Shown here piece by piece: positions 10,983 to 40,800 of a stretch of DNA of 64,000 bases (its first letter is position 1; every line of letters starts with the position of its first letter). The notes below the pieces were generated by a model. The model saw only the letters and a program-made list of their open reading frames with translations. It was not told the origin of the DNA and made no database searches. A program made the translations under genes and the position numbers. The stretch comes from Takakia lepidozioides (lineage: Eukaryota; Plantae; Bryophyta): positions 30,442,001 to 30,506,000 of the forward strand of contig CM060732.1 of assembly GCA_030704615.1 (NCBI GenBank), read 5' to 3'.

Positions 10983-13900
10983 ATGCCAAGGAGTGCGAGG
11001 CTTGCGGTGTTGCTGGTGCTGGCATTGTGCCTGGAACATGGAGCAGGGCAGGCCAATGTATCAACCTACACACTTGGATTCATGTCGCCATCAGCAGACT
11101 CCTCCATCCCTGCCAGCCTCGCCACCGCATGGTGAGAGATCTGTCCTGGAAAACCTGAAACTCTTCTTGCTCAATTTGTACCTGATGATAGAAACTGGCG
11201 TTTCATAGAGTTGAACAGGCAACCAAGAGGACGAAAATGACGAAGTGAAACTTGAGTGCAAGAATCGGTGATGACTTTTGTAAGTCACTGCTTTGAAGAG
11301 GTGAATAGTGGACTGTATTCTGATGTTGTAAGTGGTGTTCTTTCCTAGAGTGTTGTGCCAAAAAAAGATGATGATCATGCGCAGCAGGACTCGATACTCC
11401 GAAGCAAATTCGAGAGACATCCATATTCTCCCTCTCCTCCCTCCCTACTTTCCTTTTTTGATACGTTTTGACGTGGTATTCATGACTTCAAGGGTACTTA
11501 CCTTAAGCACAGATACCATTTGATTGGGAATCGGATTTCATGAGAATGGCAGTGGAAGATTGTGCTCCCTTGAGTGGCAGGTCTCCGTCATAGGAGTGTG
11601 AACTGTATTTGCATTTTTTGGTACCTTGCCAATTGGCATCTTTAACAATCTCTTGCATTTAATTCAAAGTCAACAGGAAAATCGTCATTAAGGCAGTATC
11701 ATATGGAAGCCATATACTGCTAGAAATCTTCTGATCAAGTATCCCGCTCTGGCTTTTCCTGCTTTGTTGTGGGGCTGCGAAAATCTGTATTTTTTCCGCC
11801 GGGATTGCCTGACTCACAATCCCGACCAAAGGCTGTAATAGATATATCAAGCCGGTTTCATTACCCTCACAACTTGGGGTTGAACATCCACGTCCCGTAA
11901 TGGATTATGAAAAATCATGTATAGAAAAGAGAGAGCAAAAGAATCAAAATTTTTGGTCTAGCTTTTTTATTTATCCTTCGTAATACTAACGACGGAAATT
12001 CCCGTCGTACCTCCGGCTTTCGAAGATTCGAGTGCTTGGGGGGCGCTTTTTTGTCTAAAGCCCGAATCTCTTGTTTCCAAGCTTCAGCCCCCCCACCGTA
12101 TTTAACAACAAGTACCAGGTACGAAAATCTAGAAAAAGATTCTATGTTCGGTGGTCAGTATATGCCAATAATAACTCCAGCCTTGGCATTGACATGTTCA
12201 TAATCCATATATGTGGGACCTGGGTTACTTAAAACTAAATTTTGACCTTACGGGTATCATAATTATGTGAGGAGCTGGTCACGTGGCTTTTTCTCTCCAA
12301 AGTTTGCAATCTGAAAGCCTCGGTTTTTAAGTAAACATGGAATTATATCCACCAAAGGTGTGTAAAGGTTTTCTGAAGTGTCTGTTCTAATCCTAGGCCT
12401 CCTTGCTACAGTCAGTTACTTTCTTCCACACTGTCTCTCAGACAAGCTAAACGGCGGAGACTACCCACCTTTTATTCAGTTTCTAACAGCTTTTCTCCCT
12501 CACATCATGGAGTATGGTTGGTTGATGAATTTTGCATTGCATGTGGGAATGGTGTCAGGCAATCAGCTTTTCGGGTGGCTCTGGAGGTACTGAACTCTGA
12601 GGGCCGCACCTACAGACTTGAAGGTCTATCAAAAGAAAGCGAATGTGATTGGCAAGCTGCCCAAAGAGGGGCAGAGGCCATGGTGGCCACAGGTGTGGAG
12701 CCCCCGCTGATTGGTGCTGTTGGGCCAGCCTGCAGTGGGGCAGCCATGGCATGTGCACGAGTTTTCAGGGAACATAATATCCCTCTTGTTTCATTTGCTG
12801 CAACAGCGGAGCCCCTCTCTGCCAGAGCTTACTTCCCCACATTTTTCCGCACTGTGTAAGTCCACAGTGTCTATATGTGGATGTACATAACCATGATCAT
12901 TTAAGTTCCATCCTCTCAATTGTAGTTTTGAAGTGTTCCGCATTGGTAATTGCACTAGCTGAAGTTGAACAAGTGCTGGCGCATGCTGAGAACCCGGGGT
13001 CTAGGTCGTCTTGAGAAAGAGAAATAGGAGGAGGAGGAAAAGGCAGATGAGGCAGCAAAGGTCTGAGGTTCCTGTCTTTTGGCAGCCTTTTTTCAGGAGT
13101 GTTCCTTATCTGCAATATCTGGATTGAGTGGCATCACATACCTTCTTGTTTGGGGCTCTCTTGCAGGTATAGTGATACTCTTCAGGCAGCAGCTGTAGCA
13201 GCCAGTGTAGGTGCTCGACACACGTCCCTTCCCTGTGAAATTTTCCTTGTTGGATGTCAGCTGTAGATATTGGCCCTTATTCCTCTGCAATCCTAGTCAT
13301 ACATGAACGTGGTCGAGGCATGTGACATATGCCTAGTCTCTGTCCTGTCCACATCTGCTGCAATCCCTTGGTCATACAGTCAATGATTTAAAGCAAAAGA
13401 CAGGACTACAGTAAATTGGCGGGGATATTTCAAACCCTTCAATCTTTGAACTTGTTGCAGATTGCGAAGCTGAACATGACTAAAGTCACAATGCTATCCA
13501 CAAAGGATTATTACAGCGAAAACTTGGCCCAAGACATCAATGCGGTTTGCTCATTTCCCTTCCTTCTATATGCAGTATGTGAACAACCACCCTAATTCAG
13601 ATTATAGCACTTGTTTTCATTCTCTCTCCACCATAAGACTAGGCTATACAGGTATGCAACACACATTCCACGATTGCAAAATGTACATATGCCATCTCTG
13701 ATGATCTTGACTTGTCTGGTGCGTATGATTGGAGTCATCGGATTGCCAAAGTACTCGAGAATTGGTTAAAATCTGATGTCAGCGGAGCCCATTGGGTGCA
13801 TTTGAGAATTGTCTCCACTTGGATGCCACATGAAAAGACAAAGGGCAAGCCTACAATCTGTGGGCTCTTTATGGTGGTCCTACTATCTTTAACTGTGGCT

Positions 13901-16900
13901 GTCACTTGATAAGTGCACTACCATGTTGCTATGGCAAACATTTATCTTTGTCTGAGATCATTGACGTTTCGGGCCTTCTGGATATCCAATGTAACAGTTG
14001 ATGGTAATGTTGGATGTGCAGACAGTGGGTGGATCAATTGACATACGGTCAGTGTTGCTAGAGTTTGGGGTAAACACAACAATTGACACTGTCCAGCTTG
14101 GCAATGTCCTTGACAAGGTCGAGACTGATGAATTTGTGATCATGGCTGTGCTACCTCTTCAAGCCCGTGACATCTGGCAGGCGGCCTTTCGCATGGTAAT
14201 AGCACAAGTAATATCACCGCTGCTAGCTCTTCCAGCAGTCTGTCACCCACATGTCCTTGCCAGGGAAAAAAAAAAATACTGGCCACAGACAGAAACCTCG
14301 ATGTCTCCTTGACCAGCTGGTTCTGTGAGAAAGTGGCAATAATGGTCATCTACTCTAAAGTGAACCTGTGTTTGAGGTGAGGAGTCCTCCCACAAGAAAG
14401 GTAGGGCCACCTACTGTATGGGTACAGTAGTATATCGACTTGCCTATCTGTGTAATCTAGAAAGCAATGTTGATCAATGGGGCAGAGACAACGGGATGTA
14501 ACCAATTCAATTTGCACCACACAGGTTGAAGTCAAGAAGGTGGAATGGTCCACTGAGACATGAAGAAGCCTAGTGCCAAATTGGTTTAGGAGGCAAGACA
14601 ATGAAGCATGGACTGCACCAGAGGATCTTGCATGCGGCAGAGTTGGTGAAGTAGGGGTATCTCTCCTTGGGAGGTTTTTGGAGGTTGTCATTCTTAAATA
14701 TTTCAGTCTTCCTTGTGCAGAGAAAGACTGAATTTCCTAATTGGTACTTCGGCACTGATGGAGCAACTGCGTTTGATCCTGCTGATGAAAACTCAACAGG
14801 TAACAGGCCTGCCTGGTTGATTTTACTCTCTTTGCTTGCATGACAGTTGCTCCTATTGGGTTACAACTCATAGCAACGGTTTGTCTGTGTTGGGTGCAAT
14901 CTTCATGAGATCCTTTGGGAGGTGTATTATAGTATCTCGCAGGAACTTCCCTTGAGCTATGTCATAGTCAACATGATCAAATGACATCTTTCTCTCAACT
15001 TTCTGCTGAAATGTGCCTGATGATTATTCAGCAGACCCTGAGCTGGTGAATACACTGGTGGGAGAGATTGGGCTATCCCCCTTCAGTAAGTGACATTCTT
15101 ACCCTCCAGTTTGTCACTGAGGGATCCTGTTGCACTCCTGCTTTTTAAGCCATTGTGCAAACTGCATGTTTGCAGAGGGTGAGAAGTGAAAGAAGAAAAC
15201 AAGAAAAGACAAGACATACCTGTTGACAGATCCCTGTGAACATTGGAGATAACATACCCTTATGGGCAGCGTCATGACACAAGTCCTCGAGTAGCCAGTT
15301 GTGCAGTTTCTGCCCACAGGGGTCTATGTCTGAGATCAACACGGGTCTTGCACACATGAATGATAATCAGGTTCCACTTAATTAGGGCATATGAGCCTGT
15401 TAGACATAATGCTAGGGAAGACCATGCTTTGCCCCTCAATCAGCCACAGATATGGCACTGCCTGGCACTCTTACGTCTACAACAGGTAGAAATAATATTT
15501 TCTAAAATTCGCAGGAAGCTCAAAAGAGGGGCCCTTCACAAGCAGCCCAAAAACAAATATTGCTCGAGGGATTGTCTAAGAGCCATGCCTCATGCAGATA
15601 TGCAGCTAAGCATTTCTGATCCTCATATGGAAGACATCTGTGAGAGATCATAGTAGGAAGGACAGTGAAATGTTCTTCACTTTGGATTTCCCTCCTGTTG
15701 TCCCTGACGCAAGTGGGGAACAGGTGGTCCTCACACTGCAGGAAAGAAAGGAAGAAATGGCCTTTATAGAAAGACGTAATCTACTACTTGAAACAAATAC
15801 AGTTATAACAGCTGCACATGTAGTTTTTGACAGCAAACTTGTTACGTAATGTACTCTTGAAGGCATAGCTCTGTGGGCTTCCGATTACAGGGAGCTGCTT
15901 TTGGTTTAACGCAGCAGGCTCTGAAACTTGGCCTGACATTGTGATAGTGCTCACACACAGCTAAGATTAATTTGCTGAAAGGGAAGTTTTAGAGAGACCA
16001 TCAAGCCCTCAAGTTGTACTCAGGGCATCCTTCCATGGCTCAGTTCTATCTTCTCCTTTTATCAGTTGTTTGTCATGGCAGTAAATGGATGTATTTCATC
16101 CCAATGGTGCAGGTGGTGACTTCTCAGCCAACTCCCCCTGTTCCAAATTCTACTCCTACTGGCAGAAGGCTAATTACCCTGGGTTTCCATCAGAAGGGCA
16201 AAACAAGACGCGTTCATATGTGCCGCATCTATTTGATGCAGTAACAACATATTTTGAGATCATTGACAACCTTATCAAGAACAGCATGGAAATCAACTCT
16301 GAGAACGTGTTGCTGGCACTCAACGGGTCAGGACCTGGGAATCTGAATTTCCTTGGATGTACTGGAATGGTTGCATTCGACCAAGAGACTGGTAGTCGGA
16401 GTACTGTGGCACAAGTCCCTACTTTTGACTTTGTTTCTCTCACTCCAAGCTATTGGGAGGTGCGTTTTTGGCAAATCAGGTCCTTATAAATTACTGAAGT
16501 TCAATCTGTTTTTCCAGGAAAAATATGCACTGGGTTTAATGCTTCCATATGTCAGCCGGCTAGCAATGGCAAGTGAAGTGTACAGATGGCTAATTAACTT
16601 GGAGGTAGGACTGCTTCCCTGAATATTCTGTTGGTCATATGTGGCCATACTTATTTGATGTTTAAATCTGCATAAGCCTATGGTGGGAACCTACCTTCTG
16701 CAGTGAGTCGATCCAGCTGCAAGTATCATAGAGATCTTTATAATCACCCAGGGTGCCCCGAGTCCCACTTGTGGCTACATCCCTCAAGGTGGCAAGACTA
16801 AGCAAGTGCACAGCAAGTGGTGTTTGATCATTTTGGAATTTTCCCGTCCTTGGAAGAGGCCCTCAGCTATATGGAACCACAATGTTTGTGTCTCTATGCA

Positions 16901-17765
16901 TGAAGAATCATTCAGGGCTTTGGATGTGTTTTGGTTCTCTTGTTTCCCATGGGGCTTTTGTGGAGGTGACGAAGTTCTTTCTTCATTTGTTCTCCCTGGG
17001 TGGAGCTGCAGATCAAAGGCCAGATACAAAATGGAACCTTTCTGAACCTACAACCATTGTCGAGGCCAGGTGGTCAATTCTCACCGGATTCGGTACTACC
17101 AACATTTCCTGTTGTTCCTTGCTTCTTGAAGCTAAATGTGCATGCCTATCTCTAGAGTGATCATTGTAGACAATGCTTGTGATTCTGAGATTTTCTTAAT
17201 CGTTTTTTCACAGAAAGAATGAGATCTATGTATTTATCAATCATTTCCTGAGGTGCTGTCATGCAGTGAAGGTAGAGGTTCACTTGGGAGCTGAAGTTGC
17301 TATGAAACCAGCAGTCATAAAGTCAATTTGAGCTCTGCTAATATGTGGCTCTAGCTGCAAGCAGATGGCCGTCTATTTGATGGCCTTCTAAGGGATCATA
17401 CCAAATTTTCCCACCCCAACACCTTTGAACCCAACACTTGAACCCGTACTACTAACTTGCTAGAGTCAACCTGCCCAGTCATTCTCACCTCTGATTGACA
17501 GCATATTGTAATGTATTTTTCAGCTCCTGTGTCATGTGAATTAATATATTCTAAACATGTTCTCAATCCAATTGCTGTTATTTGGCAGACTTACATCGGA
17601 CCCAATCCCAACGGCACCCCACGGAAAGGGAAAGCTGGCGTAGTAGTTGGGACTCTTTTTGGAGTTATTGTAGTGCTGGCTCTGGTGGGAGGTGCTGCGA
17701 TCTTTTATCTGCACAAGAGGAAACGATTCTCCAAATCAGCACCATTTGTCAGGATATTTCATTGA
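10983..17765 (+). CDS. Single-pass membrane protein with extracellular Venus-flytrap / periplasmic-binding type 1 (ANF_receptor-like) domain, ~492 aa
   Basis: Ten GT-AG exons (10983-11131, 12559-12855, 13167-13206, 13461-13544, 14022-14195, 14721-14799, 15035-15085, 16113-16459, 17012-17092, 17589-17765) sum to 1479 nt in frame. Signal peptide LAVLLVLALCL; VFT motifs IGAVGPACSGAA, IPLVSFAATAEPLS..YFPTFFRTVYSD, FDAV, FLGCTGMVAFD; TM VVVGTLFGVIVVLALVGGAAIFYL followed by HKRKR. Confidence 0.85.
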
Positions 17766-18389
17766 GCCAAGTAGGATGCATAGTGGTTGGTTTGCCTTGT
17801 GGATCAGCAGAAACTTGCATCGACTCAATCACAGTGGCAAACTGGCCCAACCCAATCATCCCTTTGCATTCAACCTCTGATCCTCATACAATATTGTGAT
17901 TCTTCATAATATATAATAATATATAATATAAAATGCAGTTCCTGTGAACTGCATTTTCTCCCACAGGATATTCAATGACATCTGTGCTTCGATCTTCTAC
18001 CGGACAATCTACGAAATTCTCACATGGACATTTAGAAATTTCGGTCGAATAGTCTCTATTTCCTGTATGTGTCCATCTCCCGATTTTCTGTATTTCTCCA
18101 TCCCTCCAATTTAAGACCCTCACTGGACTGTCGTGGCAAATGCTCACATTCATCTGTCATTTCATGTATTCATCCACATACCCATATTCATCCATCCATC
18201 TGTTTTTTTCTTTAGCTCATCCAACCTCCGCTGTATAGTGGAGGTTCTAGAATTGGACTCCTTGACATTACATGCTTTCGGACTAAGCAAAACTCCATTT
18301 CCTAGGAAATAGTTAGTTTTGATATATTGACATTTGGGATTGACCCAAATATCAATTCAGGGGCCAATATATGTTTGGGCACCTGGCGT

Positions 18390-18612
18390 TGTTATCTTCA
18401 CGACAGACCGCGGTGGGCTCATCTTTCTCAAGTTGAGCCTCACCGCGTCTAGCTATAACGCCGTAGTGTGGATTCCCCAAGGCGTGGGTGGCACTTGGCT
18501 CGACTTAATATATGAGTGATGTTTTCATATGCAAGTGACAGACTCGAGTTGATCTTTATCGAGTGATAAGGAAAGAAATGATACAAGCACACAAACACTA
18601 AGCTCTCTCAAA
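18390..18612 (-). repeat. Possible LTR remnant adjoining the inverted DNMT fragment
   Basis: Non-coding; ends ...GATAACA on the minus strand like an LTR terminus; no partner copy in the window. Confidence 0.25.
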
Positions 18613-18614
18613 CT

Positions 18615-19267
18615 CCAAATCATGCGCCCCCAGCAACGAAATGTCTGCTAGCAAGGCCTGCTGATATCCACGAACCGCAGACACCGGCAACAACGCAGGG
18701 TACTGCTGCACCAACTGAGCAACATGGTGTAGGGAGACGCGTCGTGCAGTCTGATCCCTCTCCACATAGAGGTAATGCCAAACTCGTACACCTGTCTATA
18801 GAACAACAACCAATGCGGTGCTGATCCCGCCAAACAAGTCCAAAAGGCAAATGTCTTCATCCGGATACTGCCACACAATCGGTATGGTATCCAATGGTGA
18901 CAACTGAGGTGGACCTGGTGCAATCCCCGCAATCCTCTCGACGGTACAAACGCCTCTTCCCAGGCTTGTTGCACCCGTCGATCAGCAACCCGCTGCAAAT
19001 CCTTGCTCGAGCCCCACAATAGAGTGTGAGTAACCATGGCAGGCAACTCCGCCATACCATGCATGTCATCATGCTCTTCCGGAGGTGACACATCCTCTGA
19101 ATGAGTCATCCAACAACTCTCCAGGCCAAGTCACTGCAGCTATGAATGCTGCCAGTGTCGGCATCTTGCCTCGTTGGGCAACCGCAACTCCCCCTATGAA
19201 CGTCACAGGGAGCTGCACACGCCGGGCCTCCCCTGACTGCCATCCAGTCCTATAGGAAGCTGACTCC
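18615..19267 (-). pseudogene. Diverged inverted fragment of the Gypsy protease-tail to DNMT region (methyltransferase motifs I-III)
   Basis: Minus-strand translation ESASYRTGWQSGEARRVQLPVTFIGG...PPQLSPLDTIPIVWQYPDEDICLLDLFGGISTALV...YLYVERDQTARRVS...ADISLLGAHDL aligns with the plus-strand 20955-21620 peptide. Confidence 0.85.
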
Positions 19268-19515
19268 TATAGGTGTGGTATCACGGGGCAACCCGTGGCC
19301 AACGAGCGCCTAGGGCGGGCCGTAAGGAGTCGTGGCGGTTAGAGCCACGGAAGGCCGCGAACAGGCAGAGTGAAAAAATAAAATAAAATAAAATTCACTC
19401 GTTTCGTGGGACCTTGATGGGGAGGCTGGGCTCTAAAGAACAATGGTTTTGAGCTAGCTGATCCGGCAGAAAAGCAACTACGACGTCCACCCAAACTACT
19501 GTTGCACCAGCACCA

Positions 19516-20190
19516 GTGGCGGTGCCTGCCTTCAACCCTGTTGTGGAGTTCTTCGAAGAGTTGAGAAGGAACTACCAAGGGATAAGGCTAGAGAAGTTGA
19601 GGAGTTTGCAAGAGTTCCAGAGGAAGCCTACTGAGAGTTTGAGGGAGGCTTTCACTCGCATGAGGCGCTTGATTAATGTAACCCAAGGGGTTACGGAAGC
19701 TCAGGCAGTCCAATTCTGGTACGGAATATTGGACAAGGAGCTGAGGAGAAGGGTGCGGGATGCAACTCTCCTACAAGCGGCCCAACCCACCTTAGCAAAT
19801 GTGTTTTTACTGGCAGAGCGGATAGAGCTCAACATGGTGGAGGAACAAGTGGTCATGGTGGGATTTGCTAAGGAGGCACCACGGGGTAGTGGTACTCCTA
19901 GCCAGCCACTACCTCTACGTGCTCAAGGCAACAAGGGGGCTCAGGTGAAGCCCAGGGAAGGGCAGAGAGGACCTTAGATGCAGGGGTCTCTCCCTTCATT
20001 TGCAAGCCAACAACGGGCGGATGTGGTGTGCTGGACATGTGGAGGACCCCATGTCAAGAAGGATTGCCCAGAAGGAGGCAATGGTTTGGCACCGGCACAG
20101 CCTACACAGTTGCAGTGTAGGCATTGTGGCAAGTACGGGCATGGAGAGGCCCAGTGCTATGGTTTGCATCCTGAGCTGTGCCCAGGCTAG
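19516..20190 (+). pseudogene. gag: Gypsy gag with two zinc-knuckle-like motifs
   Basis: LRSLQEFQRKPTESLREAFTRMRRL (gag MHR-like), CWTCGGPHVKKDC, CRHCGKYGHGEAQC; in-frame stop at 19975-19977. Confidence 0.85.
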
Positions 20191-21380
20191 TTCCAATGGA
20201 ACAATGGTGGCCGGGTGCGAGGTGGAGCAGCCCAGAGAGGACGAGGTGGCCAGGCACGAGGTGCAGGCCAAGGGCAAGCTCAACATGGCCAAGGACGCGG
20301 AGGTCAGGGTGTTGACCAAGGCATGGCCGACCGGCTTCAGCAGCTAGAGCAGAGGCTCGCTGCCATGGCCACAGCTCAGGTGATACCGGCTCCAAGGCCG
20401 GATGGTCCACCTACTGCTCCTGAGGGAGGAGACTTGGGAGGCATGGGATTCATGTGTCGGGCAGCACTACCACTACCACTATGGGTGGGGCACCACTACC
20501 ATTGGTGAGGGGTGCCACTACCACTACCACTGTGGGTGGGGCACCAGCATGAGTTCCTGAGCCACAGGGTGCGGAGGTGGAGTTGGATCCAAAGCGTGGG
20601 GAGGCAAGCCGTTAGGCCAGGCTTCCTCAGTCATTCACATTGGCAAAGACAGAATTGACGCCGTCCATGGCACCTAGTTCTCGCCCGACTGTTACCGAGG
20701 CGGAGGTTACTATGCCATTGGGGAGAGCTACACGGGCAGCACCACTACCTAGTGTTGCCAAGGCTACAGCAGCTAGTATGCTGCTAGGGGCGGCCACATC
20801 TGTGTGTCAGGCTCCATTGTTCTCGGCTACCATGATTACGAAGCCGGGGGTAAGACCAGCTGAGATGTTCAGGCTGACAACTACACTCTGAGAGAGTGGG
20901 AAGTTACTTCATCTTCAGTTATACCCGATGGGCTTTATTTTGGACTTTTGGGAGGAAACGGCATCCTACAGGCCGGAATGGCAGTCAGGGGATGGTCGGC
21001 GTGCACTGCTCCCAGTGCGGTTTATTGGGAATGTAGCGGTGGATCATAGGAACATGATGCCCACATTGGCTGCATTCTCAGGGGTGGTGGCTTGGGGTGG
21101 TGAGCTCTTGGAGGGCAATAGCCATGCAAATGATAGGCCACCACCTAATGAGGACAAACAATTGGCATACAAGGCTGATTTGCTTCCTCATGTGTCTGTT
21201 CATATTCCACTGTGGGGTACAGTTAGGAATTTGCATCGAGTAGCAGGCGAGTGTGTGCACCAAGCATGGCAGGAGGCATATCCATTGGTGAGTAAGGGGA
21301 GTTCAGTGATATCACCTGGACTTCCTCAGTTAGCTCCTTTGGATACAGTGCCCATTACCTGGCAACCACCTGATTCAGGG

Positions 21381-22330
21381 ATTTGTTTGCTAGACTTGTT
21401 TGGAGGCATGAGCACTGGGCTTGTAGGAGTGTTGCAAGCTGGGATCAAAGTACGCAAGTACTTGTATATGGAGAAGGATGAGATAGCTCGGCGTATTTCT
21501 ATGCGCCACGTTGCCTTGTTCACACACCGGTACCCTGAGTTGTTGCCTCTCTCAGCAATTCAAGGGTATCAAAAGGCCTTGCCAGCAGACATTACCTTGC
21601 TGGGGGCGGATGATTTGGACCGGCATGGTGCCATTGACTTGGTGATAGCTGGATGGCCTTGCCAAGGACACTCTCCCGCAGGTCATAGGAACGGCTTGCA
21701 TGATGCATGATCGCATTTGTTTTGGAAGATGTTGAGAGTGTTGCGTAACTTGCAGACGAGGCAAGTGCAACCTCTAGCCTATATCTTGGAGAATGTTCCT
21801 CTTATGGGGGACTCTCGGGCCACGGTTATGGCTAGTGTGCATCAGGTGCGGTCTTGGATTGGATCGGCGGTGCTATTGGATGCAGCAGCGATGGGATCAC
21901 GACCGCATCGACCTCGATTGTGGTGGACCAATCTTGCACCACCAGAGCTGCTCAAGAGAGCATACGATTCCATTCAACGGCCACCCAATCTCACAGTTGA
22001 GGGCTTTTTGGACCAAGGGAGGCAACAACAGAGGGTGTGACATGATGACCGTCCACCTTTAGCAGTGGTAAATCGAGTGGGGCAGCCACGTGCGGCCTTG
22101 CCTATGCTCATGAGCTTTCCCTCGTCTCATGTTTTTCAAGACAATGGTCTTGGGTTGATTTGGGACAGTGTGCTACAGCAATTGGTAGAGCCCAATGCAG
22201 ATGAGCGAGAGCGGGCAATGGGATTTGCCACGGGCACTACAGCTGTGCCAGCTCTGTCAAAGGCATCACGCCGACATGTGTTGGGTCAAGCAATGGATCG
22301 AAATTGCTTGACATGGGTTATTGGCTTGTG
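21381..22330 (+). pseudogene. C5 cytosine DNA methyltransferase domain (DNMT3-like) inside the Gypsy pol
   Basis: One reading frame broken only by TGA at 21708 and 22038. Motif I LLDLFGGMSTG, II YMEKD, III ADITLL, IV DLVIAGWPCQGHS (PC 21657-21662), VI YILENVP (21789-21797), VIII DAAAMGSRPHRPRLWWTNL, IX ERERAMGF..GTT, X RRHVLGQAM. Confidence 0.92.
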
Positions 22331-22799
22331 CATGGCTGAGCAACGGAGGTTGCAAACAGTGGTGGCTACTTCTGCACTCCCATTTGGTATTGTATCCCCT
22401 CTGCCAACCGAGACAGTTAAGGCAGTGAATAGGGGCAAGCACAGGATCATGGGGTGCAAACACCCATGGCAAATGTGGGATGAGATGCGGAAAGAGAGAG
22501 TCTTTGGATCTCTCAAGCAGCAATATGAGGAGTAAGAAGAGCCATACACTGAGGATCAATTGGAGGCCAAGGTGGCCAATGTTTTTGAAGAGGTTGAGAA
22601 TGTTTCTTTCCCAGAGGATGTTCTCAAGGTGGTTATGGCAGAGCAAGTGGAGGCTACGCCACAGTCAGATTGGGCGGACAAGGCCCAAGAGGTTGCTATC
22701 TAGCAACCAAAAGATTCGTCTCCTACCTCCAAGCCTGATGTACCCAAGGTTACCGTCACTGAGGACAATTGGGAAAGTCACCGGAGGAGAGAGACGGAG

Positions 22800-24180
22800 G
22801 GTCCAGCAATTTCGAAGGGCTTATAGAAATTGCTTTGCTTTCGGTTTGAAGGATTTGGGGAGTTTGAAGGGTCAAGAGATTCGTATTGATTTGGCAAGTG
22901 ACACCCCAATCTTTCGAAGGCCCTACCGGTATAGTGACATGGAGAGGTCATTGAGAGTTGTTCGAAGCTGGATTGGTGGAGTTGTCAAGCGGGGAGTATG
23001 CCTCGGCAATGGTGATGCCAGCTAAGAAGGATATCTATGGCAATTGGACAGAAAGAAGGATGTGTGGGGACTATCGTCCTATGAACCGTCAGACTAAGTC
23101 CGATAGATATGCCATGCCAACTCTAGAGGAAATTTTTGATGCCATTGGGCATGCAAAGGTGTTAAGCACATTGGACTTGCGATCCGGTTACCACCATCTG
23201 CCAATCAAAGAGGCTGACAAGCAAAAGACGACATTCTGGGGGATTCATCAACATGGGAAGGATTGCTTGTACCAATGGCGGTTCCTACCGTTTGGGTTGA
23301 AGAATGCTCCCGCAGAATTTCAGAGGGTCATGGAAATGATTCTTGTAGAGCTAGACTTCACCCGATGCTACATTGATGACATCATCATCTTTAGTGCTAC
23401 GATTGAAGAGCACAAGAGACACCTTCAGATGGTGTTTGAGCGCTTGAGAGCGCATGGGTTGAAATTGCACCCTGGGAAGTGCAAGTTCTTCCACAACCAG
23501 ATTGAGTATCTGGGCCACATGATATATCCTGGAGGACTGGGTGTTCAAAAGACGAAGGTGGAGGCCATTGCACGCATTCCACGCCCCATCGATGTTAGCA
23601 GGGTTCGTGCTTTCATGGGGTTGGCAAACTACTATCGACGGTTTGTCAAGGGATTTAGCAGCATTGCAAAGGCTCTTACCAAGTTGACCAAGGTGGGTCA
23701 GGAGTGCCCCGGAAGGAGGAGCAGGAGGAAGTCTTTGAGGAACTCAAGGCTCGATTGACTTCTGCACCTATTCTGAGGCGGCCTATTCGGGGGCGGTCTT
23801 TCCAGCTACATATGGATTGGAGTATGCTGGGAATTGGAGCAGTGCTCACACAGGTGGATGACGAGGGAAGAGAGTTCGTAGTGGCATATGTCAGCCACTT
23901 GAACAATGATGCCGAGGCGAAGTATAGCTCATATGAAGGGGAGTGTCTAGCTGCGGTATGGGCAGTGGCACATTTCAGATGCTACATCTATGGCAACCTC
24001 TTCACCCTTGTCACGGATCACCAACCATTGAAGTGGTTGATGGAGTCAGACAAGCTTACAGGGAAGCTTGCACGGTGGACACTTATGCTTCAAGAGTACG
24101 ACTTCCAGGTGGTGCATCGAGCCGGTATAGTCAACCAAGATGCGGATGGATTGAGTCGCAATCCATGCACAAGTGAGCTT
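22800..24180 (+). pseudogene. pol: Gypsy reverse transcriptase and RNase H (frameshifted)
   Basis: PIFRRPYRYS, RMCGDYRPMN, LDLRSGYHH, LPFGLKNAPAEFQR, YIDD, FMGLANYYRRFV; RH DWSMLGIGAVL, YEGECLA, LVTDHQPL, ADGLSR. Confidence 0.95.
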
Positions 24181-24539
24181 GATGATACAAGAGCTCGTTG
24201 GCATGGTGAGACGGACAAGGAGATGGTGCCAGGATGGCACGCATCTGCCTTTTTATGCATTCTAGCAATGGGAGCTCAAGCTGGTCCATCCCATGTGATT
24301 GGTCATAGAGATAGTGTGCATGACGATCCAGAGATCAGTGAGGAGCTTGGTGGTGCTAAGGATGTACATGAAGATGTAGTAGTGTTGGCCTACCTTCGTA
24401 CTAGAGAGACAACAGCCAGTGTGATTGCTAAGGAGAGAGATCGGATCCTACAACGAGCCAAAAGGTTCAAGTGGGAGGGGACTCACCTACTCCGAGTATG
24501 GGAGGATGGACGAGTGAGGATTGTGCCTCATCCAACACA

Positions 24540-25799
24540 ACGAGCGCGATTGGTATGCCATGCCCATGAGGAGTTGGGACATTTTGGGGTGCGACGCACT
24601 CATAGTTTGCTGCAAGAACAGTACTGGTGGCGGGGCATGCACACGGATGTGCAACAGTTAGTGGCAAGGTACATGGTGTGTGATAGAGTGCGAGCTTCTT
24701 TCAATGCACCTACTCCACAATTGCATCCTTTACCCATTATGGGTTTGGGCTATCGTTGGAGTCTTGACTTTGCAGGCCCATTGTCACTAACAATTCGCCA
24801 TAACAATTATGTGCTGGTGATGGTGGAACATTTCTCCAAGTGGATTGAACTGGTGGCATTGCCCGACAAGGCAAGTGAGGGAGCTGCGTATACATTCTTA
24901 GATCGAGTGCTTGGCCAATTTGGTGCTCCAGCTGAGGTACTCACGGACCAGGGGAGAGAGTTCTTGAGGGAGTTTTAGGCTTTGTGTGAGCAAGCCTTGA
25001 TAGATCACCGCACTACTTCTCGGGATCATCCCAAGGCTGATGGCCTAGCAGAGAGGGTTGTACAAACAGTCAAGCGAGGCTTGTGCAAGTATGACTTACA
25101 GAAGGGACACTTAGGAGATTGGGACCTTCAGCTACATTGGTTGGCCATGGGCTACAGGTTTAGCAAACAAGCATCACTTGCCTTGTTCTCGCCTTATTTC
25201 CTTCTCTTTGGCCGAGAGCCAGATTTGCCTGCATCTATTCGCAGGGAGACTGCAGTAGTTATCAACCTTGATGATCCGGATGTGTGGACATAAGCATGTG
25301 CCCAGCGGGCAGAGTTGTTCAAGAGAGTCATGCCTATGGCTTTTGAGAACCTTGCTATTGCCCATTGAGGTACGTCACTATACGTGGAGGCGGATATCGG
25401 CCAGGTGTTCGGTGTTTCCACCCTAGGGACTATGTGTATCTGCAACAGACAACGCCTACGACTTTGGATGTCACAGCAGGGCGTGTGATTCTAAGGGTCC
25501 GGGAGGTGTTGCCTTCAGGAGTGTTGATTATGGAGGGTCGAGATGGCATGGTATGGAAGGACCATGTGCGCAATTGTGCGCCATGTCACCTTCCATATGT
25601 GGATGGGAGGATAGATCCTAACCTTGCAGTGGTACCTGTAGGGTTGTGTTGCATGCTATGTGGGCATGCTGGTGGTGCCGCGACCATGTTGGTGTGTGAC
25701 AAATGCTCAAGGGGGTGGCACATGGGATGCTTGACACCGCCACTTGAGGAGGTTCATAGTGGAGAATGGTTGTGTCCACAATGCCTTGGACATAGGTAG
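24540..25799 (+). pseudogene. Gypsy integrase with C-terminal PHD finger (25650-25784)
   Basis: HEELGHFG zinc finger, SLDFAGP, LTDQGREF, AERVVQTVKR, SPYFLLFGR; PHD C4HC3 CMLC-x11-CDKC-x4-H-x2-C-x14-CPQC including the EWLC motif. Confidence 0.92.
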
Positions 25800-26584
25800 T
25801 GGGCATGACAATGGTGGAATTGACAAGTGATCCAAGGTCTAGCTGATGGGAGCTCAACGCCATGGATACTTAATTGAAGATCATGGATTGCAGGAAGGCG
25901 AGTAACGATGGGGCTACTTTTACACCCGGCCTCTTGATCTATTGACTTTAGATACTGGGACATGTGCGATTGAAGACCAAGCGTTGATTTATTGAGATGG
26001 ATACTTGTCAGCTATCCGGTATTAGATGGACCTAGTCACCAGCTAGGGGGGTGATTGTGGCATAGTTTTCTAGGATTGTGTGCTTAGAATGTATGGTGGA
26101 CAGCAATGTATGTTGTGGCACAATGCTTAGGTGCACGACAGATATGTATGCGCACGACAATGGGTTTAGAGACGGTCAAAGAGTGTTTCTTTCTCTTCCC
26201 GGGTCTACATCTCTTGTTGCCACTGGGGATCGCCTTAATGTCTCGGGGGTTGGGACCTGTCATAGACACCAATTATCTTCCTCAACCATTTCAGTGATTT
26301 TCATCTCCTGTGATGAAGCATACGCATTACGTCATTTGCCTTATAGACATATGGATGCGGACACCTTGAAAGAGGCCATTGGGGACACCGGTGGTATGGA
26401 ATATTGGCAAAGTTCATCAGCAGAATGACGAGTATCTAGGGCATAACATGAATCTTGAGTTTACATCGAAGGCACAGGAGAATGTCGAAAATCCCGACGT
26501 GCAGGAGGATGAATCAAACAACAGATCATCGCAGAGTTTGGAGAATCTGTGTGTAGGACTTGGGAGAAACAATTGGAGAAACTT

Positions 26585-29420
26585 GTAGTGCGTGCTATTG
26601 GGTGATGATGGGGGTGCACTGTTCGAGGGCAGGATTCAAGCTTGCATTCCCGACGAGGTGATTCTCAATGACAAATTGGGAGAGGACGACGTTGGAGTTC
26701 TTGTCACCAGAATACTTGATGGAGGATCTGGCTCTCTGATGTCCCTTGTTAAATGACCTTAAATAATAAAAACAAAACTTTTGGAAAGTGGGCGACTACT
26801 CTCAAATGATCTGGAGAATTTCATCAGATCTTCGGACAGTATCGAATATGAAGATCACAAGACAAAGCGGCATATAGCATCTTTATGAGGAAGAAGATGG
26901 ATCAAAATTTGGAACACTCCAAAAAATATATGAAAAATCTTACTCTGGAGGAAGTCAGATCCGTGAGCAGCAAACCTTGCTGCAGACTTCACTGCTGTCA
27001 ATATTTTGACCGGAGAAAAACCTTAGATATCCGTACTTCGTTTTGGGGATCCACTTTCGATGAGAGGAGAGAACATGGACTAAATGTTTCTAAACGACTT
27101 CACATGCTGGAAGGGACCTCTCGCAGGGCTTACGTTACGATTGAGGGTGTAGATGTTTGTGAGACTGCATGGTGGACAATTCCACCTACATGGAGTACAA
27201 GAAGTTGAGTAAACAGGGTTGGTTGTCAAGTCTTCATGGGAACCGAGGAGTGAAGCGGCCACGACCTCGGACGCTGCAGGCAAAAGATAACATTATGTCT
27301 ATTATCAACGGAAATACTGACCTCATGCCTCATAAGACAAGGTGCATTGGGGAGGGAAGGTGGGATACTTTGAGAGTCTTACCACCTGAAATGAACTGGA
27401 AGAGAATACGAGAATAGTCCAACGAGGTAAGAAATCTCCCTCTTTCACTTTCCTTCCTGGAAGTATTTTCTGACTTCAATGTGGACGGTTCTCTGGGAAT
27501 GTGTCTCTTTTCCACTGTGGTGCTAGTTTCATGAACCCTCCACTGTCCAGTGGAAGTTCCTTTTCTGACCCTTTCTGATTGTCTCAGACGAACAGACTTT
27601 TTGGGTTGAAAGGAGTTTCACAGTCGGCTGTTAGCCGCATCCGGAGTCGGATATTTCCTAACGTGGAGGTTCGATAAACTGGGAGCACATTTACGAAGTG
27701 CACGGAATGCGAGATGTTAAAGGACCTGATCAAAAAGTCTGTCAAGAGGAGTGCGGAACAGATGACACACAAACGAACGCTTGATAAACATTTGAGGCAC
27801 CAAGAGTCGTGCAGAAGACTGTACCATAGCTGGAGGAATGAATCTATTATGATTCTGGAGGAGTTTTTCTGTATCATTCACGACAAAATGGATCATAGGA
27901 AACAACTATTCATGGGCTACAGACTCCAAACAAGATGATTTCGGGATTGGGTTAGCTGCCAGTCTCACTAACGGGAATGGTCACGCACGGACACGGTGAT
28001 AGAGCTTACGGTCAGTTCTCTCTTGAGTTCTGGAAGGGAAATTCAAACTTTACAATTGGGTCTTTGGCTCGTTGCCTACGCCAGCTGGAGAAGCCAACCT
28101 GTCGCGAGTCTAGGAACATTTTCGATTATGAACTTCAAAATGAGTTTTTCAAATCGCTCTTAAGAGGTAAATCGAGATGTTTGGATGCTCTTAAACCCTG
28201 TAGGTCGGAAGACAGACGGGGTGCTCTTCCACTTCCCAAAAGACTCTACTTACAAACGAACAACTCCGCGAAGGACAATAAGAACGGATGGATGCTTGCT
28301 TTTCTATCCCTCCTCACTACCAAAGATATTTTTGAAGAGATCCAGCTAGGGTTTCTCATGGTCGGCCACACCCATGAGGATATCGACGGATTCTTCAGCT
28401 ACCTTTCGAAGAAGCTAAAGGAACGCAACACCTACATTCTTCCATTTGATGAGGTCATTCATGACCTCGCAAGATCTGCAGTTCATTCCACAGATTATTC
28501 AAGAGGTTCTAGACTTCAAGAAGTTTATAAAGGGCTGTATTCTGGATGGAAAGGAGGCGTTGGTCAGGATTTCAGAGATGCACTGTTCCGCTTTTTCAAG
28601 GATGCGGAGGGTTGGCCCGTCATGAAGTACAAGAAGTCAGCTACTGATTCGGATTGGCTTCCAAAAAACACTAGCATGAAGATGTGGAAGTCGAATCCCG
28701 ACGGGACTCCAAAGCTCCCTGAAGAGACCTAAACGCCGTTCCAAGAAGAACGGCCTGGGGAGTTGGAGACGACTCCTCCGAAAAACAGTCATTAACAAAA
28801 AATGGAATTAAAACATACAAGGATTTTTGGACAAAATGAATGTTGCTTGACGATCATTACAGAGGTCTAATGGAACAATACGACCAATACCGGAAACTCC
28901 GGAACATATTCATCTGCTTGAGGGATTCTGGCCGAAAACAAAATGGTCAACGAATCATCGGAGAGATGACATCCAACCACAGATAGTGCATGATATGGAA
29001 GAAGAGGATGAAATCCCAGAACCTTACTGTGGCCCGAGGTGTGAGCGTCCAAGGATACCCTTGAATCCGTTCAAGGATATTGAGAAAGGTTTTTTTGTGC
29101 TCGTTCGCCCTCATGACCCAAGGACGTGCCCAGTCTGGATGGGGGTGGCAATATCTGATGTGATCCGAGAAATGAAGAATCCTAATTTTAAGAAGGTGAA
29201 GGTGGAGTGGTGTAGACTGAAAAAAAGAGGTAACCCATCAGACTTGGAAAGGTACAGGGACTATTGGTCAAAACTTTGGGAGTATAACTCGTCAGATCCT
29301 GCTCAATGGATCCACGTGAACAATGTCATGTGGACAATGCCACCACGAAAAAATACAACAAAGAATATCACTAAGAGAATTACAGCCGCGGAAGCAGTGA
29401 AGGCGCGCGCGAATTAGGAG
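26585..29420 (+). mobile_element. Degenerate Sola-like (DUF7869-type) DNA transposon transposase region
   Basis: KPCCRLHCC, VCETAWW, HGNRG, KCTEC, IIHDKMDH, GMVTHGHG, LYLQTNNSAKDNKN (D>N at the usual DN), FLMVGHTHEDIDGFFS; several stops and frameshifts; TIRs not identified. Confidence 0.75.
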
Positions 29421-29879
29421 GAGGCGAATCTTCAGTCAGAAAGTGAGTCTTGCGAACGAGTTGCAGTCCAAGGCCGACAAAATGTTGAGGTCAATTCCGG
29501 TACTTCGATTTAAGAAATAAATTTTTTCTTCTCTATATGGCCCTTCTTGTTTGCATTGGGGGCTCATTTTTGTTATCTTCTTCTGTCGCACTCAACCTCG
29601 AATGTCCAGTAGATGTTCTCGATCTTTGTTCCCGGTGTGCTGGATTCTGGCCTGCTGTACATTCTGTTCAACGAAAAAAAAATCTTGTGGGGGAGTCTGT
29701 CCTATAAAACATACAGTTCACAAAAACAAAAAAGGCGGGCACGATCACTGGAGTCTTCCGCTTCACATTCGGTTAAAGTGGTTTTTAACAACCAAAAAAA
29801 TTAGACCAATTCGAGTTTTTCTCTCAATGACTGCGCATGTCAATCCAAAACAAAAGAGAAAACTAGCGCCAAAATGAAG

Positions 29880-30610
29880 GGAGAAGACATTTGGATAACC
29901 ATAATGGTTATGGTTATGTTATGGATAGTTCATTCCCATTTGTATGGGAAGGGTAAGGGTTTAGACGTAATAATGGCTCAAGGGCAAAGGTTTAGGATTT
30001 ACGGTGAAGGTTTAGGGAAAAGGTTTACGGTTTGGATTAATGTGAGGTACAAATGGTGAACAAACTTGGAAGACTCGCACTCGCTCTATACTTAGTGTTG
30101 TATCTTAATACCAGGTTCCAAGGACAAGTCTTCAATTTAAATACTTGTCCGTCCCAATGACTCTTCCATAATATTTGTTTATCCATTTTTATTTTTATTT
30201 TTTATCCTACTAACACACACCAAGTTCTAACGAGTGTGAGTCTTCCATATTTGTTTGTCCATTTGTACCTTAAACCCAAACCGAAAACCCCTACTTTTAC
30301 CATCACTCCTAAATCATTACTCTTACCATAAATCAAAAACCTTAGTGTACTACTCTAGTTACACTCTAAACCTTATTGTACTACCATTACCTTTTCTCAA
30401 TGTTTCATGCTCTTTTAATATTTGCTTTTGTTGGATAAGTTATGATAGAATGATTACAGGGATATCATTAATTATACCGAGTGTGAGTCCATCATATTTG
30501 TTTGTCCATTTGTACCCTAAATCCAAACCCTAAACCCTTACCCTTACCGTAAACCCAAACTTTATTGCACCTCTCTCTAGTTACACCCCAAACCTTGTGT
30601 AGCCTAGTAC
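29880..30610. repeat. Inverted and tandem ~250-bp repeats rich in degenerate AAACCC(T) units
   Basis: GTACAAATGGTGAACAAACTTGGAAGACTCGCACTC (~30047) is the inverse of GAGTGTGAGTCTTCCATATTTGTTTGTCCATTTGTAC (30232), which is repeated at ~30479. Confidence 0.65.
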
Positions 30611-37800: not shown

Positions 37801-40800
37801 TGGAAACCCAGGTGTACCTCGACTCTAACTTGAGACCATTCCGTGGTTAGTCTTACTTTCAAGGGACAAATGTTTATGATTTTCAGGCACCCTGTCTCCT
37901 CTATCCAATCCAACCAGTACCACCACCTGACCTTAGATAAAGGTAGATTTGAAATCAAGGCATAACCTAACGTAACCTCTCTTAGCCGTAAGAGAGGTAA
38001 ACTCTTGTCCACACTAGTGGTTCTGGAGCAATCTGTAGTTGATTTGTCTACGGGTACAGCACCAAGCTGTATTGACTTGCGGCTATCCCTTGGTTGGAAG
38101 TTCCAACAAACAGTGGATTGATACTCTATGGCCTGGGACCCACTTGTCTCTGCCCCCATGCCCCACCTAAAATGCCTGAAAGTCTCATGTGGCCCTCGGG
38201 AGTCAAGAGTCTGCAGGTTTGCCCCTGAGCCTCCAACACCATTTAGTTGAAAGACAGGAAACAACATGAATCTTGTCACTGAGAGGTCAGTCCCACTGGA
38301 GCGGAAGAAGTTGGATAGCGTTAACAATATCCTCCTGCATGGACTTGATAGGTTCAGAGAAAACTAATCAGGACCAAAATACAACTCACAAGGCAGATAA
38401 AATAGAAAAAAGGAAGGGGGAGGGGGTTGAAAGAGCACATAAGATAAGCATGTCATGTTACAAATCAAATCGCTTGATAAAGATGATCTCGTAGGGCACC
38501 TGATTGTTGAATACACTGGTGCAAAGCATTTCGAGCTCATTCGACATGACCACCAACCCTTTGAGTGCCTTCAAAGAATCTCTGAGTGAAATTTTCATGA
38601 TATTGAGCAGGCCGTTGTACCGTATGCACTCCTGGGTTAGCACGGTATTCATACTCTCGCTATACATAGTGGGGTATTTTGTCAGAACCAGATCCACATC
38701 AAATAAAGGAGGTGTCTTGTCCAAAATCTCAGTACATGATTTCTCAATAACATCCTCCCTTGACATGCCTCCTCCTTTGGTTTGCTCACGAGGCTGCAGA
38801 GATAAGACGGTGGTGAAAAGCTCATATGACTCATTCTGGTCACAAGTTATATCAGCATTTTCATGAAGACCGAAAATTTCAGGGCGGGGTGCCAAGGGGA
38901 GCTCTCGGATGTACGCCAAATAGGCATTCACATTGCTAGCTTCGGGCACTCTAAAGATGCCCGACTCACTAAAGTTGTAGCCTGTTGTCTCGCAAACCTG
39001 CCATAACAGATTCCCGATCATTGATCGACTTAGACAACAGTTTTTTCCTGTTAATAGTAGAGCACTAACCTGAATACTGAGCCTCACCATAGATAGACAG
39101 ATTGAGAATCTCCTACAGTTTGCCTGCAAGAGGGGCTTTGTTGCAATGCTTTCATAAGAAAAAAGCTTAGTTAATGATTAGCGACTGACTAGTTGCCTGC
39201 CTGCCTGACTAGTTGCATGGAAGGGTTTGCTTTCAGGTTTAATATTTGGTATACTTGAAGGCTGCCAAGATGGAGGTGAAGTGATATAGGTTGACATGCT
39301 GTTTGTCTGCCAGCATTATTGCTGGAGCCATGCTATGCTCTCCATGGGACTCAGGGTTATTCATTGACTGTAGATTTTGCTTATGCATGGAGAAGGGGAA
39401 AGGACAAGAAGAAGTAAGAAGCAAAGATTTTTTTTTTGTGTCCACTGCCCAAATGTTCAAGGGAGCCTAGTAAAACCACAGAAACCGACAAAGCTGGGAG
39501 GGAGAGAGAGACCTCGTTTTTAATGAATGTAAGCAGGAGAGTGTTCATAAGCCTCCTGTCTTTGTCATCTGTCACTCGTCCCCCATAATTAATTTCCCCC
39601 CACAAAAATCGAATCACCTGGATCTCACCACCAAGCATATTAGCATAAAATCACGGGATAGTAATTAGCATTTATGTCTGTTACTTAATGATGAGGGGTG
39701 CACGAACTTTGTATGGAATGTCCTCGTAGTCGTTGAGGAACATGCGGACTTGGACCTGGCACACACTCAGATCACCATCAGTGAAATCATAGCGGATATT
39801 CCAACCGAGAGGCCCAAATTTACGGCGCTCCTGGATCACAGCATGGAATAGGCAGGTGGCAAAAACCAGTCGTTTCCAGTCTTCTGGCTTGTTACAGTCA
39901 TTGAGGATTTTGTCAGTGAATCGGAGGTATGCGCGCACAAGATTTGCCCGCAGACCCTTCGGCGGCTCGAGGGTCATCTTCACCCCATTCTGAAGAATAG
40001 AGACGGGGAAGTCAGGACTGGGCATGCTTGTTAGCCACAGACGGAAATCCTTGTGGACCTGCCATTGCCCCGACATGTCCTAGTTAGTACAATAGTAATG
40101 GTCGATTGAAGCAGCACATTGTATCTGATCTGATGGTTATCTTACTGAGTGGCTGCAAGATTAGATTGGTGCTGATCAGTACACCATCAACCTAGCCACA
40201 TGAAATTTATCCATCTTACCGTTGAAGCCTGGAAACCCTATAAAGGGAGAGATTGAAATGAAGGATCAAAACAACCATACAATGGAATTAACAAGGAGAA
40301 GTCCTGTGAAAGACCCAGGACAGAGGAAAACGGTGGAAGGTTACCTTTTCAGGATCAATGGTGTCTACGATTCGGTCCAAAACGGGCATCCACGATTGTG
40401 ACAGATGGCAGTTCTGCAAGCAGACCCACATGCCACGCTCCATGCCTTGTGCCAACAGCTTCTCAGCTTTGGGGCCTTGGCCTTGCCCCAGTGATACCTG
40501 TCCATTGCCCTCTCCGGTTAGCTCCATTTGACAAGTCTTCACAGGCTCCATTTGACTTTCTTAATGAGATCACAACTGTGGCTCATCTATTACTGCCAGA
40601 CAAGCATATCTTGAGAAAACTTCACAGGGTCGAACAATTGCTGGTATTAAATAACATCATATAGCCATGCAGGTGAAATTCACAGAATGATTTACAAGAA
40701 GCCATATCTGAAGGTATTTATTTGGGTCAAAATTGTAGCTTACACTATCAAGTATATGATTTACTCTCTATTTGACACACACCAGGTTCTTTCTTAGTAC

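Follow-up and report, generated by a model that had tools for sequence, protein, structure and literature searches.

A PHD finger closes the integrase of a decayed Gypsy element with a DNMT3-like domain in Takakia lepidozioides

The 64,000-nucleotide stretch of DNA that was analysed (the window) contained a decayed, highly repeated Gypsy copy. As read from its sequence, the element is of the KnitGypsy-Dnmt3 kind, with the order gag, protease (PR), DNMT3-like methyltransferase, reverse transcriptase (RT), RNase H (RH), integrase (INT) and PHD finger. The element carried both reader and writer, and this pairing is old and widely distributed. Among relatives, the PHD finger stayed with the integrase, and the DNMT moved and was sometimes lost. 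The evidence favours separate roles, the PHD finger serving the integrase and the DNMT the particle. It is judged rather probable that the PHD finger tethers integration to nucleosomes via the H3 N-terminus and that the DNMT, whose coding sequence precedes a conserved stop, is produced at the level of Gag and acts separately by methylating the cDNA of the element. The observed basis of this reading comprises the arrangement of the domains, the stop with its surrounding sequence, conservation across the clade, and split repeats with 4-bp duplications in relatives.

An earlier sequence-only reading had placed a full C4HC3 PHD finger at the end of the integrase, where chromoviruses carry a chromodomain. 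Reading frame, Pfam match and fold bore this out, and the finger was conserved under purifying selection. All eight C4HC3 ligands shared one frame from the first Cys (25650) to the last Cys (25784), and the stop closing this frame (25797-25799) lay 13 bases past the finger. The Pfam profile search of the window ORFs, which had been proposed as a check, gave 42.8 bits for PF00628 (E 5.5e-11) against a cut-off of 24. The stretch is a genuine PHD finger. A structure model of the integrase C-terminus and the PHD, built from a 28-row alignment, consisted of a small barrel (strands 29-79) followed by the PHD finger, which was predicted with confidence (pLDDT block means of 85-93 for residues 101-150). 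In the structure comparison, the PHD model matched the PHD of ATXR5 (5vab) with Z 9.2 and rmsd 1.5 over 52 residues; other fold matches were DPF2 (Z 8.6) and ORC1b (Z 8.2). The barrel N-terminal to the PHD resembled SH3/Tudor/KOW folds, including the foamy-virus integrase C-terminus 4bac (Z 6.3, rmsd 5.7, 70 aligned), and is, according to the model, an SH3/Tudor-like integrase C-terminal domain. A chance Cys pattern was ruled out by the PF00628 score and the fold match. A host PHD gene adjoining the element was ruled out by the same PHD linkage in 61/66 scorable loci.

The sequence matches of the finger in the PDB (best 60 of 88) comprised CHD4, KDM5A/B PHD1, ATXR5, KMT2D, DPF, PHF21A, UHRF1 and BAZ2. 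H3-contact residues described for KDM5B (PMC4225485) were surveyed, in KDM5B numbering, in 73 matched post-integrase PHDs; nine fingers did not fit the pattern. The R2-binding Asp (D328) was kept in 65/73, the pocket Trp (W351) and the pocket Pro (P347) in 70/73 each, and the L325 position held Leu, Ile or Val in 72/73. At the position of the family's pocket Pro, the window copy had a His (25755-25757). Two residues before the His ligand, presumably the alignment position of the cage Trp, Trp occurred in 0/73 and Gly in 65/73. Recognition of H3K4me3 by PHDs needs an aromatic cage with an invariant Trp (PMC3241642), and the cage Trp of this ING/BPTF class was absent in 73/73. The A1 pocket and R2-binding Asp of the unmodified-H3K4 class (BHC80/KDM5-PHD1) were present in 65-72 of the 73 at the four positions, with His for Pro in the window, and the K4-contacting acid of this class before the first Cys was found in 8 (Asp or Glu at the D308 position). 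An acidic patch at this position is typical of unmodified-K4 readers (PMC3241642), and K4 discrimination is therefore doubtful. The finger is predicted to bind the H3 N-terminus (A1 and R2) with no K4me3 preference and weak K4 discrimination. The lack of an acidic patch before the first Cys in 65/73 would also suit a PHD that is no chromatin reader and instead a structural or non-histone integrase module (stability, DNA or host-protein binding), and H3 binding is lacking in some PHD-like domains of plants (PMC9640981). This is considered improbable: the A1 pocket and the R2-binding Asp were kept in 65-72/73 highly diverged proteins, and the solved structures nearest to the PHD model, 5vab and 5hh7, are H3-tail complexes. 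At the codon level, the PHD is under purifying selection between subfamilies, with dN 0.068 and dS 1.30 over 47 codons between the loci L017 and L024, and dN 0.28 and dS 1.50 between the window and L047. Within the decayed family, PHD dN/dS ratios were near 1.

The window copy was dead, with premature stops, at least three frame changes and the protease core gone. DNMT, RT, RNase H and integrase lay upstream of the PHD, arranged as in intact relatives, of which L017 served as reference. Domain boundaries were taken from alignments, and the features were as follows.

18614..19268, minus strand: inverted sister-family fragment (protease end and DNMT N-terminus), outside the sense copy; 66% identical to 20953-21619 (blastn/tblastn)
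19462..20184, plus strand: gag, stop-broken; PF03732 E 3.8e-4, below cut-off; aligns to L017 ORF1 aa 227-438
20919..21100, plus strand: C-terminal remnant of the aspartic protease; the L017 ORF1 alignment resumes at aa 799
21375..22349, plus strand: DNMT3-like C5 cytosine methyltransferase domain; catalytic motifs IV, VI and VIII retained; two premature stops
22701..22709, plus strand: conserved in-frame TAG (22701-22703) and CAR-YYA hexamer; putative signal for readthrough from gag-PR-DNMT into RT-RH-INT-PHD
22768..23730, plus strand: reverse transcriptase, frameshifted; PF00078 E 2.2e-33
23743..24160, plus strand: RNase H; PF17917 E 3e-33
24547..25365, plus strand: integrase zinc-binding and core domains; PF17921 and PF00665; two premature stops, frameshift near 25365
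25365..25640, plus strand: integrase C-terminal SH3/Tudor-like barrel and linker; model strands 29-79 and barrel fold matches
25650..25784, plus strand: PHD finger, predicted H3 N-terminus-reader type; PF00628, ligand pattern, fold and alignment
26045..26159, plus strand: polypurine tract (26045-26051) and single B terminal repeat (26052-26159); complete relatives carry B-A-B here

The element was apparently 5'-truncated upstream of gag. The catalytic part of the protease, located at aa 708-763 in L017, was absent from the window copy. The DNMT3-like domain, which the sequence-only reading had assigned to the same element, was confirmed by the intact L017 homologue, whose best PDB matches were DNMT3A/C/B (E 7.5e-8). 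Ty3/Gypsy affiliation was shown by the PR-RT-RH-INT order and the Ty3-like RT, with Ty3-G Gag-Pol as the best PDB match (E 2.9e-143). Four complete loci (L006, L033, L058 and L074) had A..B-A-B split repeats, TG...CA ends, a polypurine tract and, judged by eye, 4-bp target duplications in 4/4. Of these terminal features, the window copy retained only the polypurine tract and one B repeat. In L006, the repeats were located at 1672-2013 and 10234-10801. The internal B-A junction of all four loci resembled the element's right end, two bases and the left end. The polypurine tract and 4-bp duplications together with split repeats correspond to a DIRS/Ngaro-like layout used with a DDE integrase. No Rfam match was present within 18000-27000, no relative of the element was found in viral contigs, and protein atlas matches to the element were all under 0.9. 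Summed contig depth in the best-matching run was 1e5 to 8e5 over about 18300-26500, compared with 61 for the single-copy DNA on its flanks. These depths do not translate into a copy number, but the pile-up marks a very abundant family. Contigs of two presumed-RNA runs aligned to the element in places, with numerous differences, and did not span the conserved stop.

Several other features were present in the window. The sister DNMT-Gypsy fragment at 18614-19268 was positioned head to head with the sense copy, and a second repeated sequence directly followed the element (26500-30000), with DUF7869 at 27956-28732. The pieces 16113-16457 and 17588-17963 were joined in contigs of the two presumed-RNA runs, as expected of a host gene that is spliced here and ends some 340 bp short of the repeat block. 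A receptor ligand-binding exon was located at 12377-12859, and a neighbouring receptor exon was 54-58% identical to proteins of Ceratodon, Marchantia and Riccia. Dynein heavy-chain exons were found at 38458-39177 and 57836-58375. Together with the receptor exon, whose closest matches are moss and liverwort proteins, they point to a host among the non-seed land plants. The dynein introns (45571-55972) held two near-identical inverted RT elements, a Copia element and dispersed repeats.

The C-terminal 150 residues matched 28 proteins, some named from Marchantia, Calypogeia and Sphagnum, and separately one Coleochaete transcript. An RNase H-integrase query, neutral to DNMT and PHD, returned 79 metagenome loci and 150 representative proteins, of which 47 were left out as tandem or unrelated Gypsy proteins. 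The loci and the window formed 71 groups at 97% identity and 10 at 80%, hence they are non-independent. PHD was present in 61 of the 66 scorable loci, DNMT in 28/29, and both in 22/25. DNMT was carried by 63 representatives; 52 of these were scorable at the C-terminus and 51 had the PHD. Of the PHD-only proteins, 14/18 begin too near the RT for DNMT scoring. The DNMT slot varied, either before the RT or between RNase H and integrase, and 45 representatives had the DNMT relocated next to the integrase; the PHD always adjoined the integrase. P0032 was a single 2811-aa ORF comprising protease, DNMT, RT, RNase H, integrase and PHD, and P0019 also held DNMT and PHD in one ORF. The claim that one polyprotein encodes both reader and writer was correct for these two proteins; for the window it would apply only if the stop at 22701-22703 is read through.

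In an RT-RNase H tree of 90 rows from a quick IQ-TREE run, in which the outgroup did not separate cleanly, one clade of 73 rows (SH-aLRT 98) held every DNMT-bearing and every post-integrase-PHD row. The RH-DNMT-INT arrangement formed a nested clade of 48 rows (SH-aLRT 99). The poorly resolved DNMT tree played no part in ordering the events. As all these rows fall into one clade, the co-occurrence reflects shared ancestry and counts as one event. Within the clade, P0136 and P0143 lacked DNMT in both slots and P0141 and P0144 had degenerate DNMT remnants; the PHD was kept in 4/4, four proteins only. P0186 was rejected as a case of PHD loss: its finger begins and the frame then apparently shifts. 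L035 carried the PHD but lacked the DNMT region between the protease end and the RT, which was probably lost by internal deletion. Outside the DNMT clade, 10/150 representatives were RH-PHD-INT proteins with no DNMT seen, three of them visible from protease to integrase. Accessory domains were found in several relatives. Among the RH-PHD-INT proteins, P0205 and P0213 had Dam (PF05869) before the RT, and P0227 and P0232 a deoxynucleoside kinase (PF01712) between RNase H and PHD. P0154 had a G-patch between DNMT and integrase (aa 1184-1223) and P0162 had CCCH zinc fingers in gag (aa 347-410). In P0027, P0030, P0031, P0123, P0154, P0165 and others, the PHD was followed by a tail of about 150 aa with a Rossmann methyltransferase fold and amino-methyltransferase-like motifs, assigned from PF02086 (E 0.044 in P0031) and weak Foldseek matches to SAM methyltransferases.

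These distributions bear on a coupled reader-writer, in which DNMT and integrase-PHD would sit together in the pre-integration complex, the PHD picking the site and the DNMT methylating the insertion and its flanks. PHD in 51/52 scorable DNMT proteins, both domains in 22/25 scorable loci and the single ORFs P0019 and P0032 agree with it. The derived clade (48 rows, SH-aLRT 99) places the DNMT directly before the integrase, as coupling predicts; a readthrough product would still contain both domains, and one particle can carry both even after cleavage. Nevertheless, the co-occurrence amounts to one event in one clade (73 rows, SH-aLRT 98), the PHD outlives DNMT loss or decay in 4/4, the domains of the window branch lie about 1,100 codons apart with a stop between them, and the finger sequence is not ADD-like. 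Such a complex is considered unlikely. A test of co-occurrence across Gypsy lineages had been proposed; here DNMT-bearing proteins had the PHD (51/52), but PHD was also found in DNMT-less relatives. Tight DNMT-PHD coupling is not supported despite the broad shared clade; PHD retention by DNMT-less relatives is, on small numbers, the first half of what the earlier reading had itself named as counter-evidence. Its analogy to animal DNMT3, where an adjacent ADD couples to catalysis, was not supported either. The catalytic domains are alike, but instead of GATA-like and PHD-like fingers beside the DNMT, the element has a single canonical PHD of the KDM5-PHD1/ATXR5/DPF type far off on the integrase, about 1,100 codons downstream and past the conserved stop. 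No DNMT3 or ATRX ADD was among the best 60 of 88 PDB matches to the finger.

The stop separates the two halves of the element. In L017, a gag-PR-DNMT ORF of 1369 aa and an RT-RH-INT-PHD ORF of 1047 aa lay in the same frame with one TAG as the sole break, and the window TAG at 22701 was at the equivalent position. The stop search was designed after L017 had been seen. It covered 44 rows with enough DNA before the RT, of which 34 were anchored on a pre-RT motif and 10 could not be. A stop was present at the site in 30/34 anchored copies, followed by CAR-YY in 27 of the 30 and by the full CAR-YYA in eight, namely the window, L017 and six more rows. It occurred in 5/10 subfamilies (80% identity). 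After decay stops, the CAR-YY context was found in 3/869. In host-species contigs (X1 and X2 being one sample), the window stop at 22533 read Trp in 98-99% of the depth and is private to the window copy; among the changes listed, none of at least 5% fell within 22701-22709. Decay as the origin of the stop at 22701 was rejected on the basis of the L017 TAG, the host-contig depth and the decay-stop context. The stop was not universal. P0019 and P0032 lacked it, so it is a branch feature; L075 and L076, both unanchored, showed none in the linker.

CAR-YYA after UAG is the readthrough signal of TMV and works in plants (PMC2754532), and the window had this type I arrangement of in-frame stop and hexamer. 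From this motif it is inferred that the stop is read through and that the DNMT is made in Gag-like excess over integrase-PHD. The largest subfamily had CAR-YYC or CAR-YYT and usually an ATG three codons past the stop, a context that allows reinitiation instead of readthrough. ORF2 (RT-RH-INT-PHD) might then be made separately, by reinitiation or from spliced or subgenomic RNA, and DNMT and PHD would never form one chain in the window branch. The ATG in most copies of that subfamily fits this, as does the Coleochaete transcript protein P0012, labelled from a Met just before the RT. However, the first Met of L017 ORF2 is inside the RT, at about residue 117, and the CAR-YY context persists across subfamilies with saturated synonymous sites; separate production of ORF2 is held to be very improbable.

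In the preferred reading, the leaky stop would let most ribosomes yield Gag-PR-DNMT and a minority add RT-RH-INT-PHD. Integrase is released by the protease in other Gypsy polyproteins, and the protease of this element would likewise free integrase-PHD from the remaining polyprotein. The PHD would bind H3 A1 and R2, disfavouring or ignoring K4 methylation, and would bias insertion away from H3K4me3 promoters or merely onto nucleosomes. The DNMT would act on cDNA in the particle, by analogy with the proposal that other retrotransposon DNMTs act on cDNA (PMC5890265). Reader and writer would serve one life cycle and not act as an ADD-DNMT3 module. A wider scenario is more tentative and regarded as possible but doubtful. 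In it, DNMT3 and integrase-PHD form the core of an ancient Gypsy clade that is widespread and plentiful among non-seed land plants; the leaky stop gives a Gag-like excess of DNMT, cDNA leaves the particle pre-methylated, and the PHD directs it to H3K4-unmethylated nucleosomes. In a derived branch, the DNMT, relocated beside the integrase, would give one writer-integrase-reader protein, often with a second, amino-methyltransferase-like tail.

The closest described system was KnitGypsy-Dnmt3 of Klebsormidium nitens (de Mendoza 2018, PMC5890265), compared by description only. It shares the Gypsy domain set, the Dnmt3-like coding domain and the DIRS-like split repeats. An intronless Dnmt3-like domain in a Gypsy element was present in the window, and A..B-A-B repeats were found in L006, L033, L058 and L074, those of the window being incomplete. 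In KnitGypsy-Dnmt3, the DNMT is described within the Pol ORF, whereas in the window branch a stop separates DNMT from RT and the PHD closes the integrase. The main text of PMC5890265 has no occurrence of 'PHD'; its Fig. 4c may already show one. In contrast to that algal element, relatives of the window element were named from Marchantia, Calypogeia, Sphagnum and Coleochaete, and no protein labelled K. nitens was among the relatives returned.

PHD fingers are called widespread in retrotransposons (PMC6673714, PMC8557442, 10.1101/2021.11.30.470311). Gypsy-7a_cRei of Chlamydomonas (PMC9940879) is also a Gypsy Gag-Pol with a PHD, and targeted insertion has been suggested for it from intergenic insertions at 2.6 times expectation. 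Its legend gives the PHD before INT and names no DNMT, the order of the RH-PHD-INT group outside the DNMT clade. No further information on a PHD was found in the part of PMC12344493 covered. EpiLTRs of Cymbomonas and Euglena (bioRxiv 10.64898/2026.05.21.726589) likewise combine a chromatin reader and a C5 methyltransferase in one LTR element, but carry a chromodomain, DAM and a DNMT4-sister enzyme where the window element has a PHD and a DNMT3-like domain; they are called distinct from streptophyte Gypsy-DNMT3 in that source. Chromodomain and DAM were absent from the window element and L017 in the domain scan. The combination of DNMT, PHD and methyltransferase-fold tail recalls EpiLTRs, and the tail occurred only in other clade members, not in the window element or L017. 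Chromoviruses such as MAGGY (10.1101/2021.11.30.470311, PMC6673714) similarly carry a reader after the integrase barrel that is proposed or shown to steer insertion; theirs is a chromodomain for H3K9me, that of the window element a PHD with predicted H3 N-terminus binding. A chromodomain was absent from the window ORFs, L017 and the scanned clade members and was found only in the outgroup protein P0238. ATXR5, KDM5A/B PHD1, DPF2/3 PHD2, ORC1b and UHRF1, the top sequence or fold matches, share the A1 pocket and R2-binding Asp with the element PHDs, which are mostly without the K4-contacting acid of H3 N-terminus readers. PHD-Gypsy, DNMT-Gypsy and chromodomain plus DNMT elements have already been published separately. 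In the full-text literature covered, which took in neither subscription journals nor Repbase, and neither figures nor the main PMC5890265 supplement, no Gypsy element with DNMT3 and PHD, no land-plant or bryophyte spread of such elements and no conserved stop was found.

The stop is a testable handle on the role of retrotransposon DNMTs, an open question in PMC5890265, as an enzyme made at Gag level would point to the particle and its cDNA. PHD steering of integration has been proposed for many elements and was not demonstrated in the literature covered; with DNMT before the RT, beside the integrase or lost, the clade gives natural controls for it. An opinion paper describes DNMT-bearing Gypsy elements as absent from land plants such as tracheophytes (PMC6338049). 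The present finding would extend these elements from one alga to high-copy families of non-seed land plants.
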